A DNA stretch of 64,000 nt, taken from Pyrinomonadaceae bacterium (GTDB lineage Bacteria; Acidobacteriota; Blastocatellia; Pyrinomonadales; Pyrinomonadaceae). Positions 915-63,739 of the stretch are shown piece after piece (the stretch's first letter is position 1; every line of letters begins with the position of its first letter). Where the stretch lies: contig JBEVJD010000356.1 of the NCBI GenBank assembly GCA_040510435.1, forward strand, positions 1,026 through 65,025, given 5' to 3'. The notes under the pieces are model-generated. The model searched no databases, was not told the origin of the DNA, and worked only from the letters and a program-made list of their open reading frames with translations. The position numbers and the translations under genes are program-made.

Positions 915-1020
915 GTAAATCGTGAATCGTACAGTCGTAGCCCGTCCCGCTTTTCCACGGACTACGCTTTACTTCAGGCACGCCGGCACGCCGCTTCACG
1001 GTTTACGATTCACAGTTCAC
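915..1020. repeat. Degenerate heptamer-arm hairpin between the kinase and regulator genes
   Basis: gtgaatcgta (922-931) pairs with tacgattcac (1004-1013). An inner pair is cgtagcccgt (936-945) / acggactacg (957-966). The right arm reads ttcacgg tttacga ttcacag ttcacaa (period 7). Confidence 0.5.
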
Positions 1021-1028
1021 AAAAAATT

Positions 1029-1814
1029 ATGACGGAAGCCGCACAGGCGCCCATCCGCGTGCTCGTCGTGGACGACGAGCCGCTCGCGCGCGAGAAGATT
1101 CGCGGCATGGCAGCCGACGACCCCGACCTGCGCGTCGTCGGCGAGTGCACGAACGGCGCCGAGGCCATCGAGGCCGTCCAGACGCTCAAGCCCGACCTGC
1201 TCCTGCTCGACGTGCAGATGCCCGAGGTCGGCGGTTTTGCCGTGCTCGAAGCCCTGAAGGACGACGGGCTGCCCCCCGTCATCTTCATCACGGCCTACGA
1301 CCACTACGCCGTGCGCGCCTTCGAGTTCCACGCGCTCGACTACCTGCTCAAGCCCTTCGACCGCGAGCGCTTCCGCGCCGCGATGGAGCGGGCCAAGCGG
1401 CACATCAGGCGCGACAACGGCGGGGCGCTCGACGAGCGCATCATCGCGCTCCTGGAGCAGATGCGCGGGCAGCAGCGCTACAGCGAGCGGCTGGTGGTCA
1501 AGACCGGCGGCCGCGTCTTCTTCCTCAACACCGACGAGATCGACTGGATCGAGGCCGAGGGCAACTACGTCTCCATCCACACGGGCAAGAAGTCGTACCT
1601 GCTGCGCGAGACCATCTCAAGCCTTGAGTCGCAGCTCGACCCGAAGGACTTCGTCCGCATCCACCGCTCGGCGATTGCGAACATCAACCGCATCAAGGAG
1701 CTTCAGCCCTGGTCGCACGGCGAGTACCACGTCATCCTCCACGACGGGACGCAGTTGACCCTCTCGCGCAGCTACCGCGAGAAGCTCCAGGCCGCGCTCG
1801 GCAACAGTCTGTGA
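1029..1814 (+). CDS. LytTR-family response regulator (receiver + LytTR DNA-binding domain)
   Basis: Receiver motifs VLVVDDEPLAR and DLLLLDVQMPE. C-terminal LytTR-like segment FFLNTDEIDWIEAEGNYV...RIHRSAIANINRI. Confidence 0.92.
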   Translation: MTEAAQAPIRVLVVDDEPLAREKIRGMAADDPDLRVVGECTNGAEAIEAVQTLKPDLLLLDVQMPEVGGFAVLEALKDDGLPPVIFITAYDHYAVRAFEFHALDYLLKPFDRERFRAAMERAKRHIRRDNGGALDERIIALLEQMRGQQRYSERLVVKTGGRVFFLNTDEIDWIEAEGNYVSIHTGKKSYLLRETISSLESQLDPKDFVRIHRSAIANINRIKELQPWSHGEYHVILHDGTQLTLSRSYREKLQAALGNSL

Positions 1815-1837
1815 CGTGGTCGAAAACGGACGAGCGG

Positions 1838-1879
1838 GCGGCGAGTCCAGTTCATCACGCGGCGAGTCCAGTTCATCAC
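1838..1879 (+). promoter_or_regulatory. Perfect 21-bp tandem direct repeat, candidate LytTR binding site
   Basis: gcggcgagtccagttcatcac occurs at 1838-1858 and again, identical, at 1859-1879. The core ccagttcat resembles the AgrA-type 9-mer, and the 21-bp phasing matches known LytTR sites (9-bp repeats, 12-bp spacer). It lies 24 nt downstream of the regulator gene and upstream of the Fis-like gene. Confidence 0.55.
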
Positions 1880-1886
1880 AAAAGCC

Positions 1887-1915
1887 TTCGCGAACGGCCA
1901 ACTGCTCTTTAGAAT
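1887..1915 (+). promoter_or_regulatory. Candidate activator-dependent promoter for the Fis-like gene
   Basis: -10-like tagaat at 1910-1915 with a poor -35 (ttcgcg, 1887-1892) directly after the direct repeats. A second tagaat lies at 1969-1974. Confidence 0.3.
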
Positions 1916-2025
1916 CCCCCTCGACACGGCAGCCCCGCGGCCGCCTGCGCCTTGGGCGCCCGGCGCCTTAGAATGGGTGGAGTCCCGGCCCCGCCCGACC
2001 TTACCCGAAGGGAGTTCTACCGAAC

Positions 2026-2412
2026 ATGCTGGAACAGAGACATTACGCGTTCAATCGGCCGGCCGAGCAGCCCGAGCCCGCCCCCGCCGCCCCGCCCGAA
2101 CAGGGCGCGGCCGTCAGACTCAAGACCTTGAGGGAGTTGGCGCTTGCGCTCCTCCAGGAGGTCGATTCGATCAAGGGCAGCGGCTCGCTCGAAGCGAAGC
2201 CGAGCGTTGACTTCTCGGAGGAGGTGCGCCGCTTCGAGACCGACCTCATCCGCTGGGCGCTGATGCGCACGGGCGGCCACCAGCGCCGCGCCGCGCGCAT
2301 GCTCAACCTCAAAGTCACCACCCTCAACGCCAAGATCAAGCGCTACCGCATCCAGCCGCACGCCACCCCCGCCACCACCGGCAACGTCGTCGGCCTCTAC
2401 CGCGAGGAGTAG
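2026..2412 (+). CDS. Small Fis-family (HTH_8) DNA-binding protein
   Basis: C-terminal FETDLIRWALMRTGGHQRRAARMLNLKVTTLNAKIKRY is a typical Fis/NtrC-type helix-turn-helix. Confidence 0.75.
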   Translation: MLEQRHYAFNRPAEQPEPAPAAPPEQGAAVRLKTLRELALALLQEVDSIKGSGSLEAKPSVDFSEEVRRFETDLIRWALMRTGGHQRRAARMLNLKVTTLNAKIKRYRIQPHATPATTGNVVGLYREE

Positions 2413-61737: not shown

Positions 61738-61921
61738 CTTTGTCTCCAGAGGCGTCGATGCCAAAGTCGTCGGTCTATGTACGTCGCGGCGAGCCGCGGG
61801 GTTCTTTGGCGTAGATTCTAACACCCCCCGGCGCGCGGATAGTAGTTGCGCCGCCAACGCGCCGCCTACTATTATACCCGCGTCAGCATTCTTCCAAGCC
61901 GCAGAACAACTTCAGAAAAAT

Positions 61922-62725
61922 ATGAGCGCCGAAAACGAGACGCCGAACGCCGCGCCCGCGCAGGAGGGCAAGTACGTCTACTGCATCATCGAGTCGAAGG
62001 AACCGCGCAGTTTCGGCCCCATCGGCATCGGCGGCCGCGGCGACGAGGTCTATACCGTCCACCACGACGGGCTGGCCGCGGTCGTCTCGAACACGCCCAT
62101 CCAGGTCTACGACCCGACGCGCGAGAACGTCTTCGCGCACGAGCAGGTCAACGAGACCGTCATGCGCGAGTTCACGGTGCTGCCGATGGCCTTCGGCGTG
62201 CTCTTCCGCACCGAAGACGACATCATGGAGTTGATGCGCGGCACCTACGACGCGCTCCGCGACGTGCTGGCGAAGATGGCGGGCAAGGTCGAGTTCGGCC
62301 TCAAGGTCAACTGGGATCGCGAGCGCGTCATCGGCGAACTGGAAGAGCAGAGCGAGGAGATACGCAACCTCAAGGAGCAGATCACCTCGCGCGGCGCGGG
62401 CTCGACCTACTTCGCCCGCATGCAGTTGGGGCGCCTCGTCGAGACGGCCCTGGCCGAGAAATCGGACGCCTACGTCCGCGAGGTCTACGACTACCTGCGC
62501 GACACGGCCGTCGCCTCGCGCGCCAACAAGCCCATCGGCGACAAGATGATCATGAACGCCGCGTTCCTCATCGAGCGCGACCGCGAGCAGGAGTTCGACG
62601 CCAAGGTCAAGGAGATCGCCGCCAAGTACGAGGGCAAGCTCTCCTTCAAATACACAGGCCCCTGGCCGCCCTACAACTTCGTCCACATCCGTCTGAAACT
62701 GGAGCGCGGCGAGGGCGCCGCCTGA
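61922..62725 (+). CDS. gvpF: Gas vesicle protein GvpL/GvpF family
   Basis: KYVYCII...VHHDGLAAVVSNTP...TVLPMAFGVLF...KYTGPWPPYNF are hallmark GvpL_GvpF motifs. Confidence 0.87.
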   Translation: MSAENETPNAAPAQEGKYVYCIIESKEPRSFGPIGIGGRGDEVYTVHHDGLAAVVSNTPIQVYDPTRENVFAHEQVNETVMREFTVLPMAFGVLFRTEDDIMELMRGTYDALRDVLAKMAGKVEFGLKVNWDRERVIGELEEQSEEIRNLKEQITSRGAGSTYFARMQLGRLVETALAEKSDAYVREVYDYLRDTAVASRANKPIGDKMIMNAAFLIERDREQEFDAKVKEIAAKYEGKLSFKYTGPWPPYNFVHIRLKLERGEGAA

Positions 62726-62775
62726 CGGCAGCGCCCGCCACCGACATGCGCCGCTTTGACCATCGAGGTCACGCC

Positions 62776-63303
62776 ATGACAGACGAAGAACGCCAACGCA
62801 CGATGGACTTCATCCTCCAACAGATGGCGCAGTTCGCCGCCAGCATTCAGAGGAGTGAAGAGGAGAGAGAAAAGCGCGAGCGGACAGACCGCCGCAGGGA
62901 TGTCAGCATCGAGCAGATCAGGAGAATCCTCGCTCGGTCGATCTGGGAGCGCCGTTGTGATCGCAGAGACTGGAACGAGCGCATGGCCGCTCTCGTTAAC
63001 GCGCAGATGCGGTCTGATGAGGCGCGGTCACGCCTGGATGAAAAGATGGACGCGCTCATCGACGTACAGGTCAGGTCAGAAGAGACGCAATCACGTTCGG
63101 AAGAGTGGCGGACACAGATGGAAGAGAGTTTCGCGCGCTCGAACGAAAGACTGGCATACCTTGAAGACTTGACGGCGCGCAACAGTGAGGCCGTCGGGAA
63201 GCTCGCAGTCTCGAACGACCGCAACAGTGAGGCCATCACGAAGCTGACCGAGGTCGTGACGGACATCGCACGGCGGCGGAACGGCGACGAGGAGTCGGCT
63301 TAG
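62776..63303 (+). CDS. Coiled-coil protein with internal 21-aa repeats (hypothetical), between gvpF/L and gvpG
   Basis: GAGG lies 6 nt before the ATG at 62776. MAALVNAQMRSDEARSRLDEK / MDALIDVQVRSEETQSRSEEW repeat, plus RNSEAVGKL / RNSEAITKL. Confidence 0.6.
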   Translation: MTDEERQRTMDFILQQMAQFAASIQRSEEEREKRERTDRRRDVSIEQIRRILARSIWERRCDRRDWNERMAALVNAQMRSDEARSRLDEKMDALIDVQVRSEETQSRSEEWRTQMEESFARSNERLAYLEDLTARNSEAVGKLAVSNDRNSEAITKLTEVVTDIARRRNGDEESA

Positions 63304-63307
63304 TCAT

Positions 63308-63640
63308 ATGTTCCTGATTGACGACATCCTGCTCGCGCCGGTGAACGGCTTCAAGTTCATCATGCGGCAGATTCAGCAGCTCGCCGACAAGGAGCTGAAC
63401 GACGAGTCCGTCATCAAGGAGCAGTTGCTCGAACTCCAGATGCGCTTCGAGCTGGAGGAGATTTCCGACGAGGACTACGCCGAGGCCGAGCGCGAGCTGT
63501 TCGCGCGGCTGCGCGCCATCAAGGCCCGGCAGCTCGAAGCCTTGGGGCAGGTGCACACGGCCGACTCCTCCTCAATGGTCGTCGAGGCGGGCGGCGACGA
63601 CGAGGGCGGCGACTTCTACGAGCCCGGCGGCGGGCGCTGA
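63308..63640 (+). CDS. gvpG: Gas vesicle protein GvpG
   Basis: MFLIDDILLAPVNGFKFIMRQIQQLADKELNDESVIKEQLLELQMRFELEEISDEDYAEAERELFARL matches the GvpG pattern. Confidence 0.8.
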   Translation: MFLIDDILLAPVNGFKFIMRQIQQLADKELNDESVIKEQLLELQMRFELEEISDEDYAEAERELFARLRAIKARQLEALGQVHTADSSSMVVEAGGDDEGGDFYEPGGGR

Positions 63641-63644
63641 AACA

Positions 63645-63739
63645 ATTTTTGATTCGCGGTTTTTGATTTGCGGTTGAAGTCATGAAACGAACCCCGCGCG
63701 CCTCGCCGAATCAAAAATCAAAAGTTAAAAATCAAAAAT
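63645..63739. repeat. Heptamer-arm hairpin (AATCAAA/TTTGATT family) spanning the arsA-like start
   Basis: atttttgattcgcggtttttgatttgcgg (63645-63673) pairs with ccgaatcaaaaatcaaaagttaaaaatcaaaaat (63706-63739). The ATG at 63682 lies in the loop. Confidence 0.75.

Follow-up and report, generated by a model that had tools for sequence, protein, structure and literature searches.

Paired arrays of short tandem repeats have been described before. In Geobacter metallireducens, four classes of sites are 'mostly found in pairs' on opposite strands; tandem octa- or heptanucleotides (GTTGCTYN x4, TCTCCGTS[Y] x3 and MTYCTGA x5) make up the three classes described, one pair of sites lies between proB and proA, and the paired sites were proposed to bind nucleoid or global regulatory proteins (Aklujkar et al. 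2009, PMC2700814). In Xanthomonas, 70–75 pairs of GGGAATC heptamer arrays are arranged convergently (Rehm et al. 2015, PMC4692102). According to the summary of Mrazek 2007 in PMC4679880, no long simple repeat is commoner in prokaryotes than the heptamer, and polymerase slippage was put forward as the cause.

The window, that is, the whole 64-kb stretch analysed here, belongs to a MAG of Pyrinomonadaceae (Acidobacteriota), a soil acidobacterium. Long hairpins whose arms are tandem 7–8-nt repeats are present in about half of its gaps; the original prediction of 'roughly half' is correct because about 22 of the 46 gaps of at least 30 nt hold one, and the paired arrays it located were recovered with TRF and an inverted-repeat finder. 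When all 24 listed intervals were re-scored, the predicted arm complementarity proved strong in 22, with arms of 17–50 nt, complementarity of 81–100% and MFE z from −5.8 to −21. The other two, 915–1020 (z −2.2) and 63645–63739 (z −2.6), are weak. For 16311–16536 and 21621–21773 the re-scored figures describe the inner stem only (28-nt and 17-nt arms); by the inverted-repeat finder, 16311–16536 has outer heptamer arms 30 nt long and 90% complementary. Predicted stem-loop stability is −36 to −110 kcal/mol, and the arms stand 12–165 nt apart.

Arms of period 7 or 8 occur in about 19 of the 24 intervals (chance expectation, none). The GAGCGG family at 7762, 34413 and 54137 is palindromic and dispersed, but lacks this periodicity, having about two 10-nt units. 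That one design is shared by many unit sequences holds up; the families are less separate than first listed, since AGTAGTC, AGTAGAC, AGTAGGC (= ggcagta) and AGGAGTC (= ggagtca) are one-base variants of one unit. A strict census, requiring two period 6–9 arrays with reverse-complementary units at most 260 nt apart, found 15 pairs in the window, compared with 0.1 per dinucleotide shuffle (n = 20). Fourteen are intergenic and one is a chance match in coding DNA, which supports the confinement to intergenic DNA first described. Coding sequence makes up 0.82 of the window; every one of the 24 listed elements falls in the remaining 18%, overlapping ORF 3' ends by at most 21 nt. As anticipated, they occur between convergent genes as well as inside operons, for example at three ABC-transporter operon junctions (J1–J3). 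Many elements are nested: the outer heptamer arms enclose a core that is often a GC hairpin in itself. The elements, to which no strand is assigned (signs are those of genes), are:

915–1020: weak degenerate hairpin of CGTGAAT-like units (15-nt arms, 87%), ending 8 nt upstream of a LytTR response-regulator gene start.
2419–2541: AGTAGTC arms with inner Y core (A-tract + GGCGGCGCGCC...GGCGCGCCGCC + T-tract), z −9.8; 6 nt past the stop of 2026–2412 (+).
7762–7841: GAGCGG-family palindrome (21-nt arms, 95%), 5 nt past the stop of radical-SAM gene 7847–8869 (−).
10241–10305: GTGATAA/GTGATGA arms, perfect over 23 nt, at J3; 7 nt past the called stop of an ABC ATPase gene (−).
11025–11137: AGTAGTC arms with Z core at J1, occupying the whole gap from FtsX-permease stop to ABC-ATPase start; the core contains a sigma70-like TTGACC-16-TAAGAT.
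12273–12353: CCGTGAA-armed palindrome at J2, perfect over 28 nt as predicted; the upstream ORF's TGA is within the 5' arm and a permease starts 6 nt past the hairpin end.
13501–13596: 8-mer (GACGGGGA/GAAGGGGA) arms, z −8.1, adjoining the stop of 13596–14030 (−).
14036–14160: AGTAGTC/AGTAGAC arms with Z-like core; HD-domain ORF 14141–14638 (−) stops at a TAG within an arm, and the next start is 5 nt off.
14736–14816: GTGATAA-armed palindrome with mirrored variant units, z −13.3, perfect as predicted but over 30 nt, not 29 nt; 0 nt past the stop of an FAD oxidase gene (−).
16311–16536: GGCAGTA (= AGTAGGC) arms in a divergent gap (inverted-repeat finder), with a MITE-like inverted-repeat element, 16343–16506, nested between them.
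17660–17748: AGAGACAC 8-mer hairpin between convergent genes, z −11.1; family pattern TTAACCAC(AGAGACAC)n GGCTTG.
18024–18120: 8-mer (GGGGAGAG/ACGGGGTG) arms, z −10.7, 8 nt past the stop of 18129–18773 (−).
20171–20248: GGAGTCA arms, z −9.7, 6 nt past a stop and 7 nt before the next start; TTTTT follows on the gene strand.
20511–20577: plain perfect 23-bp hairpin, no tandem arms, adjoining a cation-efflux gene stop; absent from the original list.
21621–21773: GGCAGTA-type arms, z −9.1, with an inner perfect GC hairpin at 21692–21733; 6 nt past a zinc-ribbon gene (−) stop.
22578–22730: GGAGTCA arms filling the gap from T2SSE ATPase stop to zinc-ribbon gene start; orthologues in L006 and L008 have altered units.
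24775–25075: GGACTGA hairpin past an S9 peptidase stop (comparison with L006), its 3' arm split by a MITE-like element of about 230 nt.
34413–34507: GAGCGG-family palindrome in a 5' UTR, between promoter TTGACT-17-TATTAT and an S9 peptidase start; missing in L001 and L004, with a single arm-like piece left in L003.
35015–35145: GACGGGGA 8-mer hairpin inserted at the BipA stop (comparison with relatives).
41512–41646: AGGAGTC/AGTAGAC arms with Y core, z −12, overlapping the stop of 41644–42573 (−).
45667–45748: AGAGACAC 8-mer hairpin where ribA (GTP cyclohydrolase II) converges with an SGL-like gene.
54137–54232: GAGCGG-family palindrome (AAACAGAACCGCGAGCGGTAGCGAGCGGGT...), z −11.9; a GNAT ORF stops at its TAG, and TTTAATTTTT and then a TonB-like gene start follow.
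56516–56661: five-unit AGTAGTC/AGTAGAC arms (40 nt, 95%) with X core hairpin, z −21, the strongest; between convergent genes, with the same composite elsewhere in L008.
59706–59831: AGTAGTC/AGGAGAT arms with Z core, overlapping the stop of 59827–61095 (−).
61128–61197: GGGTGTT arms, z −7.3, 6 nt past the stop of 61204–61707 (−).
63645–63739: T-rich 14-nt repeats, then AATCAAA repeats, 4 nt past a stop; the sole listed interval with a pyrimidine (T)-rich arm first.

The position of the hairpins is constrained: 21 of 25 in the window lie within −21 to +12 nt of a stop codon. Among 29 hairpins in co-directional gaps of Pyrinomonadaceae DNA, the median distance is 4 nt to the stop versus 39 nt to the next start; the stop is nearer in 24 cases versus 4, and 10 of the 29 ORFs terminate within the element. 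The purine-rich arm is the 5' arm in 88 of 94 paired arrays from genomes and 125 of 130 from viral contigs. A is enriched upstream (0.28–0.41) and T downstream (0.33–0.41; background 0.17–0.18). Bidirectional terminators share this purine-first polarity and these flanks, and where AT-richer relatives have a canonical terminator at the same site, its polarity matches that of the repeat hairpins. No classical terminator was flagged at 9–23 kb, a stretch of about 12 genes holding 11 such hairpins.

Judging from sequence, we think the chances about even that these are 3'-end or intercistronic RNA hairpins (terminators, attenuators or exonuclease blocks) whose stems are changing, replaceable microsatellite arrays. 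Transcribed as the first bases past the ORF, the hairpin would fold into a very stable stem-loop whose likeliest effect is to end or attenuate transcription, to block 3'->5' exonucleases, or both, and it would set the 3' end and relative dosage of the upstream cistron. Read on either strand, the DNA palindrome has its purine-rich arm first, so transcription from both directions would give the same kind of hairpin. The 3'-end reading draws on stop-codon position, polarity, conservation of the site without conservation of sequence, compensatory changes, array dynamics, core dispersal, the lack of classical terminators at 9–23 kb and density in phage or GTA-like DNA. Against a terminator, TTTT stands within 15 nt of only 10 of 88 hairpins; with loops this long, most therefore fail the definition of an intrinsic terminator. 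Against an RNA hairpin, the sense strand folds as stably as the antisense strand, with 47 versus 45 G.U pairs (Wilcoxon P = 0.78), so nothing points to RNA-level selection on the transcribed strand. Also counting against the 3'-end reading are the elements in a 5' UTR (34413–34507) and in a divergent gap (16311–16536), the marginal mirror symmetry of unit order between arms (60 vs 52, P = 0.03), and the unchanged unit number between contigs 99.8% identical.

In related genomes, the same site carries unrelated unit families or nothing, adjoining invariant flanking DNA. After gene 41644–42573 all five genomes have a hairpin, drawn from four families; a conserved TTTTTCTGCAAC and an almost invariant leader come next. 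After ribA, a hairpin is nearly always present among 70 relatives, often as a classical T-run terminator; the AGAGACAC hairpin at 45667–45748 is kept in 5 close genomes with three compensatory double changes. Orthologues of J3 have GTGATAA, GTGACAG or GCTGTTA units, then a conserved TTTTT and ATG, and the change from GTGATAA to GTGACAG is present in both arms. At J1 the window, L329 and L331 have the same Z-type element precisely between stop and start; in L330 the junction reads GAATGAAATGAGA, with a gap of 1 nt and no element. At J2, L329 and L331 have other unit families and L330 none, making three unrelated families in total. At the BipA stop, L001 and L004 have nothing, L006 has CCGTGAA heptamers, and L003 and L008 have other inserts. 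Sites empty in close relatives (the BipA stop; J1 and J2 in L330) imply that the hairpin is dispensable there.

The main rival, which we regard as unlikely though still a serious contender, is that these are selfish or neutral mobile palindromic repeats (MITE- or REPIN-like) without host function. Inserted or copied widely by recombination, they would survive only where least harmful, directly past a stop, the closed stem holding the stop and next start codon near each other. Presence/absence polymorphism at precise junctions (J1, the BipA stop), the three families at J2, pairing without strand asymmetry, ORFs that end within elements, other mobile DNA nested inside them and conserved non-palindromic Z cores at unlinked loci of several genomes all suit such repeats. 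Yet there are no target-site duplications save possible 3–4-nt TGA(C) repeats at two sites, and no near-identical copies pointing to recent bursts; nor was a transposase found among the window proteins scanned with Pfam. Hairpins present in all genomes examined at some sites and followed by a conserved T-run, compensatory changes between orthologous copies, and density in a compact phage or GTA-like gene cluster also argue for the 3'-end reading over this one.

The arrays themselves change. The GGACTGA hairpin past the S9 peptidase has one unit in the window versus three in L006, with its loop inverted, and units of the L006 5' arm are altered in concert. By eye, a 17-nt mini-hairpin in L330 is the counterpart of a 130-nt AGAGGTC hairpin in L331, with common outer ends. 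A second rival is a mutational by-product, in which terminator or 3' hairpins enlarge in place as replication slippage duplicates the basal 7–8 bp on both sides, with neither dispersal nor added function. This fits the abundance of heptamers in prokaryotes, the dominance of period 7 (90 of 118 paired arrays), the shared outer ends in L330 and L331, within-arm uniformity exceeding between-arm complementarity at the free unit position, and inner cores resembling classical A-tract/GC-stem/T-tract terminators. We nevertheless find it improbable: Y, Z and X cores with AGTAGNC arms recur, in either orientation, as composites at unlinked loci of the window and of other genomes, including identical composites with non-palindromic cores; hairpins occur entire or not at all, leaving no remnant of a stem where they are missing; unit number does not change between contigs 99.8% identical; and the same units recur across phyla.

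For the 3'-end hairpins, unit number and sequence may shift through slippage within each arm, with complementarity held by selection for pairing and in some cases arm-to-arm copying; loops would invert between the inverted arms, and whole composites could reach other gene ends by ectopic recombination or some transposition. Together these would let a site keep 'a hairpin' while its sequence family turns over. This evolutionary part of the model has been shown in part.

The same hairpin design occurs in other phyla and is dense in phage or GTA-like contigs; one compact structural gene cluster of this kind has a hairpin in almost every gap. Six of seven positions of the AGTAGNC unit are conserved across phyla, which hints at recognition and, with the reading given to similar paired sites by Aklujkar 2009, favours DNA-level sites for nucleoid or global regulators (IHF/HU, gyrase or a repeat-binding factor), the inversion reflecting dimeric binding rather than a hairpin. 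We consider this the least probable explanation, and very doubtful. At least 10 unrelated unit sequences in the 64-kb window would need as many proteins, arm spacing is variable, one unit family supplants another at the same site, and the families share only self-complementarity, purine-first polarity and stop-codon position.

REP/BIME elements, the analogy first drawn, and stem-loops of 'selective RNA processing and stabilisation' resemble these hairpins in the proposed 3'-end and dosage role, and for function the analogy is fair. Membership of the REP class is not supported: the unpaired GTAG/CGTC tag is absent, single arms are not palindromes, and no Y1 transposase was found among the window proteins scanned with Pfam. 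No Rfam family matches. The claim that the design is undescribed does not stand. The Geobacter 'paired tandem hepta/octanucleotide sites' and the Xanthomonas GGGAATC inverted pairs are similar in design, and the Geobacter MTYCTGA unit is the complement of the window's GGAGTCA/GAAGTCA unit. The literature searched does not state the positional rules, turnover or phylogenetic breadth, and what the present analysis adds is placement at stop codons, purine-first polarity, family turnover at the same site, recurring composites, and occurrence across phyla and phage.

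The window has a G+C content of 67%, and its BipA/TypA protein matches that of a Pyrinomonadaceae bacterium MAG (Acidobacteriota, Blastocatellia) at 100% identity, with many relatives at 88–98%. Our codon-usage gene map places 52 genes over 82% of this DNA. Pfam identifies ordinary housekeeping and envelope genes among the window proteins scanned and no transposase domain; no tRNAs were found in the window. One unannotated open reading frame was observed in addition:

Window ~17793–17946 (minus): small Cys-rich ORF of ~50 aa (MADERPKNKCARETCDCPAAEGSKYCSEECEDASKVHMMEIGCTCHHPDCG), with GAGGAGG upstream and an 8-mer hairpin on either side

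The hairpins in this DNA are real, abundant and rule-governed. Using TRF and an inverted-repeat finder, we recovered the paired arrays where the original prediction had placed them, and on recomputation the arms were complementary: 22 of the 24 predicted intervals are strong hairpins (arms of 17–50 nt, 81–100% complementarity, MFE z from −5.8 to −21), the two weak ones being 915–1020 and 63645–63739. Loops between paired arms measure 12–165 nt, and arrays of at least three tandem 7–9-nt units are present in about 19 of the 24 elements, as judged by TRF and per-arm periodicity. A strict census, which counted two arrays of period 6–9 with reverse-complementary consensus units no more than 260 nt apart, gave 15 pairs in the window compared to 0.1 per dinucleotide shuffle. 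As predicted, the elements are intergenic rather than coding (14 of these 15 pairs), about half of the 46 gaps measuring 30 nt or more hold one, and the elements belong to no catalogued Rfam family, the whole window giving 0 matches at the gathering threshold.

At least eight unit families occur within the 64 kb. Some of the proposed families had to be redrawn. GAGCGG is indeed a dispersed palindrome, without the 7/8-periodic arms ascribed to it, and AGTAGTC, AGTAGAC, AGTAGGC and AGGAGTC are all present, as one-base variants of a single unit and not as separate families. In many elements the heptamer arms enclose an inner core, which gives a nested structure, and three such cores (here Y, Z and X) recur with AGTAGNC arms in the window and in comparison loci from other genomes (L-numbers).

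Recurring cores within AGTAGNC arms
Y core: A-tract, GGCGGCGCG...CGCGCCGCC, T-tract; window 2420 and 41520; L052, L083, L118, L122; inverted in L015
Z core, non-palindromic: AAAAACCTTCG...GCGGAGCGC; window 11026, 59706 and 14037; L023, L029, L067; inverted in L043, L046, L052
X core: window 56516; L008

Recurring composites of this kind are not attributable to convergence and must therefore have been copied between loci. Like MITEs, the Y, Z and X elements combine terminal inverted repeats with an internal sequence conserved in several copies, across several loci and genomes. Target-site duplications gave no consistent mark of insertion: no direct repeats flank the 31 AGTAGNC elements, and TGA(C) repeats flank the element at two sites only. 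The window contains no insertion sequence whose ends match and that could have been the parent. At the sixth position of AGTAGNC units the arms are complementary in just 65% of unit pairs, and uniformity within an arm often exceeds the match between arms. General copying from arm to arm was considered and set aside, as mirrored unit order was seen 60 times against 52 in a unit-shuffle null (P = 0.03), a marginal excess; clear mirror order is confined to a few perfect 23–30-nt palindromes. The comparisons show arrays that behave like microsatellites under pairing constraint, and copying between loci as well.

A separate MITE-like family with nested inverted repeats (AGCCCCGGAGGGGCGGGATGTTTATAGC ... 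GCTATAAACATC...) was also seen. Two of its three copies lie within heptamer-armed hairpins:

Window 16343–16506: MITE-like copy
Window ~24790–25040: MITE-like copy, missing from the orthologous hairpin of L006 (a BipA-region locus)
Window 27842–27986: MITE-like copy

One rule concerns position. Of 25 window hairpins, 21 lie within −21 to +12 nt of a stop codon, and seven also end 3–8 nt before the next start and therefore fill the whole gap. We widened the count to 26 more Pyrinomonadaceae loci. The 29 hairpins in co-directional gaps lie a median of 4 nt from the stop (IQR −3 to 7) versus 39 nt from the next start; 24 are nearer the stop and four nearer the start, and in 10 of the 29 the stop of the ORF falls inside the 5′ arm. 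The predicted presence inside operons is borne out by an ABC-transporter operon (unknown gene, FtsX/MacB permease, ATPase) with a hairpin at each of three successive junctions. Hairpins occupy 3 of 24 divergent, 29 of 135 co-directional and 5 of 17 convergent gaps, a raw trend toward divergent depletion on small counts.

The second rule is polarity. Taking the window and the 120 genome-scan loci together, 88 of 94 pairs have the purine-rich arm 5′, and the other six look like chance pairs; in viral contigs the figure is 125 of 130 pairs. The flanks are rich in A upstream (0.28–0.41) and in T downstream (0.33–0.41) over a background of 0.17–0.18. This polarity is shared by the classical terminators of the window and by those that relatives carry at the ribA site. 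The hairpins share with Rho-independent terminators a stable stem close after the stop (median 4 nt) and mostly lack a U/T-tract immediately following a compact stem-loop: TTTT occurs within 15 nt in 10 of 88 hairpins, and T enrichment is otherwise present without the tract. A simple terminator scan of the window from 9 to 23 kb found no excess over shuffles and flagged none of the 11 hairpins there. Strand asymmetry at the RNA level received no support, since fold energies and G·U counts are equal in sense and antisense. Selection for stops in all frames was likewise rejected for the period-7 units (15 of 31 independent units contain a stop, versus 13.3 expected from composition-matched shuffles, P = 0.26); their stop content is due to purine richness.

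We then compared orthologous sites around BipA (L001–L008), ribA (80 metagenome loci) and the ABC ATPase (L329–L331). The same site carries different hairpin families in different genomes, some of them as close as L006, whose DNA is ~93% identical to the window. The operon junctions are numbered J1 (window hairpin 11025–11137), J2 (12273–12353) and J3 (10241–10305).

Occupants of orthologous sites
After gene 41644–42573, window: AGGAGTC/AGTAGAC arms with Y core
After its orthologue, L001 and L004: GAGCGG palindrome
After its orthologue, L008: AGTAGAC arms with X core, the composite found at another locus, 56516–56661, in the window
After its orthologue, L003: AGTAGGC arms, degenerate
BipA stop, L001 and L004: empty; in L004 the following gene's −35 (TTGACA) and the stop TGA overlap
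BipA stop, window: 8-mer hairpin
BipA stop, L006: CCGTGAA heptamers and TTTT
BipA stop, L003 (11815–12395): unrelated ~590-nt AT-rich insertion with tandem and inverted repeats, flanked by a 9-bp direct duplication (GGCTTGAGC)
J1, L330: reads GAATGAAATGAGA, with 1 nt from stop to start
J1, window, L329 and L331: the same Z-type element, exactly between stop and start
J2: CCGTGAA arrays in the window, AGATGTT in L329, AGAGGTC in L331
J2, L330: a 17-nt mini-hairpin only, its outer ends common to the L331 element
J3: GTGATAA in the window and L330, GTGACAG in L331, GCTGTTA in L329

Presence/absence polymorphism, for which the original prediction had pointed to orthologous gaps, is found at the BipA stop, empty in two loci, and at J1, where one locus has no hairpin. 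The ~590-nt insertion in L003 is a different mobile element at the same BipA-stop site. At J3, the GTGACAG of L331 is a one-base variant of the unit that appears in both arms, and all three unit families are followed by a conserved TTTTT and ATG. After gene 41644–42573, each of the five genomes has a hairpin, then TTTT(T)CTGCAAC, then a ~140-nt near-invariant leader. After ribA, a AGAGACAC hairpin is kept in five close genomes with three compensatory double changes, and the hairpins of remoter relatives are of other kinds, frequently textbook T-run terminators. Further differences between orthologous copies concern the number of GGACTGA units (1 versus 3), loop orientation, concerted unit changes within one arm and a nested MITE-like insertion. 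Between contigs that are 99.8–100% identical (L006/L007, L001/L002, L004/L005), the hairpins do not differ in unit number; the arrays are therefore not as fast as contingency loci, and hypermutability of that kind was rejected.

Several further features came to light at these sites. The leader is near-invariant in the five genomes and the hairpin adjoining it wholly different; Rfam returns nothing for it even at E ≤ 1, and we regard it as a candidate cis-regulatory RNA. The promoter-like sequence in the J1 hairpin is kept in the orthologous copies of L329 and L331 and absent from other Z copies. Yet another ribA 3′ hairpin family (AGCCGCGGATT...AATCCGCGGCT, with 'GCCGCGGAT' stems) occurs in more distant relatives (L291, L294, L296, L298, L302, L315, L328).

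Window 41358–41505 (minus): ~140-nt non-coding leader upstream of the GTG start of gene 40698–41357, the first of four genes without a Pfam match
Window 11065–11092 (minus): sigma70-like promoter, TTGACC-16-TAAGAT with TG extension, in the Z core of hairpin 11025–11137, directed toward the ABC ATPase gene
Window ~9870–10222 (minus): ~116-aa gene between the ABC ATPase and LolA genes, absent from the codon-usage gene map and called in L329–L331; its ATG directly follows the J3 hairpin and T-run

All families are self-complementary, have the purine-rich arm first between A/T-rich flanks and begin a few bases past a stop codon. Together with the conserved T-runs at some sites and the classical terminators that relatives carry at the same site, these features point to a role at RNA 3′ ends. 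The hairpins would act in termination or attenuation, or block exonucleases, or both, in the manner of REP/BIME and SRPS stem-loops. A serious rival is still a selfish palindromic repeat that persists only where it follows a stop codon, because most hairpins have no U-tract, strand asymmetry is absent and close relatives have empty sites, all of which count against a purely functional reading. Where a hairpin sits exactly between an overlapping stop and start, folding would leave the two codons adjacent, and insertion may perhaps be tolerated for this reason.

To gauge breadth, we scanned one genome per species for AGTAGNCAGTAGNCAGTAG. About 70 matches are expected by chance, so that single matches mean little; we counted paired arrays alone and treat single-array matches in other phyla as weak evidence. 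Among the matches listed, Pyrinomonadaceae are strongly over-represented, and paired arrays occur in Blastocatellia, Thermoanaerobaculia, Aminicenantes, Vicinamibacterales, Chloroflexota, Bacteroidota, Mesorhizobium and, within Bacillota, Desulfotruncus and Paradesulfitobacterium. Further unit families are often found within the same 8 kb. Period 7 predominates (90 of 118 pairs), also where AGTAG-like units are absent (42 of 70). IMG/VR contigs contain at least 120 matching stretches, and 58 IMG/VR loci hold 132 pairs, up to five per 5–10 kb. One of them, L222 (a 3300047160-type contig of 10.7 kb), encodes an HK97 capsid, protease, major tail, tape measure and glycoside hydrolase cluster with a hairpin in nearly every gap. 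We also observed that L222 and other viral loci among L129–L248 are phage/GTA-like structural clusters of 60–70% G+C, with AGGCAGT-type heptamer hairpins in nearly all gaps.

A more far-reaching reading, which we think improbable, is that these elements make up a class, so far without a name and spread over phyla, of self-propagating 'microsatellite terminators'. Such palindromic modules, built of sequence-specific units (CAGTAG-N, GGAGTCA, ACGGAGAG-like), would be installed or replaced precisely at stops by conserved machinery or a hairpin-templated DNA transaction; unit number would set stem length and through it termination and operon polarity, and the modules would serve phages and GTA-like clusters too.

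In the window and its relatives, much of the heptamer-repeat signal is organized as gene-3′-end hairpins with clear rules (stop adjacency, purine arm first, one design with many units) and fast replacement between close relatives. If the hairpins terminate transcription or stabilize mRNA, a major soil phylum would have in them its missing terminators, which annotation pipelines ought to call; if selfish, they would represent a new style of mobile palindrome. Because cultured carriers exist (Geobacter metallireducens, Mesorhizobium), the question is directly testable.

We know of no accepted role for heptamer repeats since they were first counted. Among long simple repeats in prokaryotes none is more abundant, according to Mrazek 2007 as summarized in PMC4679880. 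Dispersed heptamer/octamer 'satellites' are reported in Chloroflexus and Mesorhizobium ciceri, with no mention of pairing (PMC6749651). In cyanobacteria (STRR/heptamer repeats of Calothrix and Nostoc) and Beggiatoaceae (TAACTGA), intergenic tandem heptamers likewise occur sporadically across phyla in several unit families, with suspected post-transcriptional roles (MacGregor 2015, PMC4679880). Unlike the window elements, these are mainly single direct arrays, often just 5′ of starts, with 'a few' pairs in Nostoc and one inverted case in a Beggiatoaceae genome.

Among palindromic systems, REP elements hold up 3′ exonucleases and terminate transcription weakly, and a hairpin that lies within ~15 nt of a stop codon influences the gene before it. 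PMC3733652 presents the REP roles in transcription termination and mRNA stabilization as hypothesized. REP/BIME/REPIN resemble our hairpins as frequent palindromes outside genes, at 3′ ends and in operon interiors, and as insertion targets for IS elements, and the AGTAGNC unit includes GTAG. However, REPs are single 20–40-nt palindromes that carry an unpaired GTAG/CGTC tag and go with a Y1 transposase, whereas the window elements span 65–230 nt, their arms are tandem arrays of non-palindromic 7–8-mers, and no RAYT was seen among the window proteins scanned. The end tag does not carry over either: GTAG is found only paired and repeated within AGTAGNC units and is missing from most families (GTGATAA, CCGTGAA, GGGTGTT and the 8-mers).

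Intrinsic terminators, including bidirectional ones and the U-tract-less hairpins proposed for high-GC bacteria, also place a stable hairpin soon after the stop, with a purine-rich 5′ arm, a pyrimidine-rich 3′ arm and A/T-rich flanks, and classical examples occupy the same site in relatives; the window hairpins differ in mostly lacking the U-tract and in their far longer loops and stems, the stems being repetitive. In DUS/USS inverted pairs of Neisseria and Haemophilus, a dispersed short motif paired 3′ of genes serves as a terminator stem (Kingsford et al. 2007, PMC1852404). That system has one motif with a separate function, DNA uptake, and no tandem arrays, and the likeness is one of analogy only.

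Two sets of paired arrays are close precedents, and the closer is that in the Geobacter metallireducens genome paper. This genome has four site classes 'mostly found in pairs' on opposite strands, of which the three described are tandem octa-/heptanucleotides, interpreted as binding sites for IHF/HU or regulators, and G. sulfurreducens has a different repeat in the same gap (Aklujkar et al. 2009, PMC2700814). As in the window, there are several classes per genome, 3–5 tandem 7–9-nt units per site, each site partnered by another on the opposite strand, at a distance that varies, an intergenic location even within operons (proB/proA), another repeat in the gap of the sister species and adjoining IS elements; MTYCTGA is the complement of the window GGAGTCA, and TCTCCGTS matches or resembles TCTCCCCGTC. 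Geobacter belongs to a different phylum, Desulfuromonadota, and its sites appear in supplementary alignments only, not viewed as hairpins, in a report without stop-codon adjacency, polarity, turnover or cross-phylum breadth. In Xanthomonas, also of high GC, GGGAATC forms intergenic tandem heptamers with 70–75 opposite-strand pairs able to form stem-loops, and array length varies by species as the single or paired type is kept (Rehm et al. 2015, PMC4692102). That G-quadruplex study concerns one unit family and does not describe a multi-family design, nested cores or site turnover.

No paper in the literature searched contains our unit strings or states the stop-codon placement, polarity, site-level turnover or breadth including phage-like DNA. 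The window elements do have all the marks of the Geobacter and Xanthomonas arrays: tandem units, a complementary array on the opposite strand, intergenic placement including operons, and several classes. Given these two precedents, the design is not new, and the original prediction that it is undescribed does not hold; the Acidobacteriota hairpins are a case, in a new phylum, of a poorly characterized design that had been noted before.
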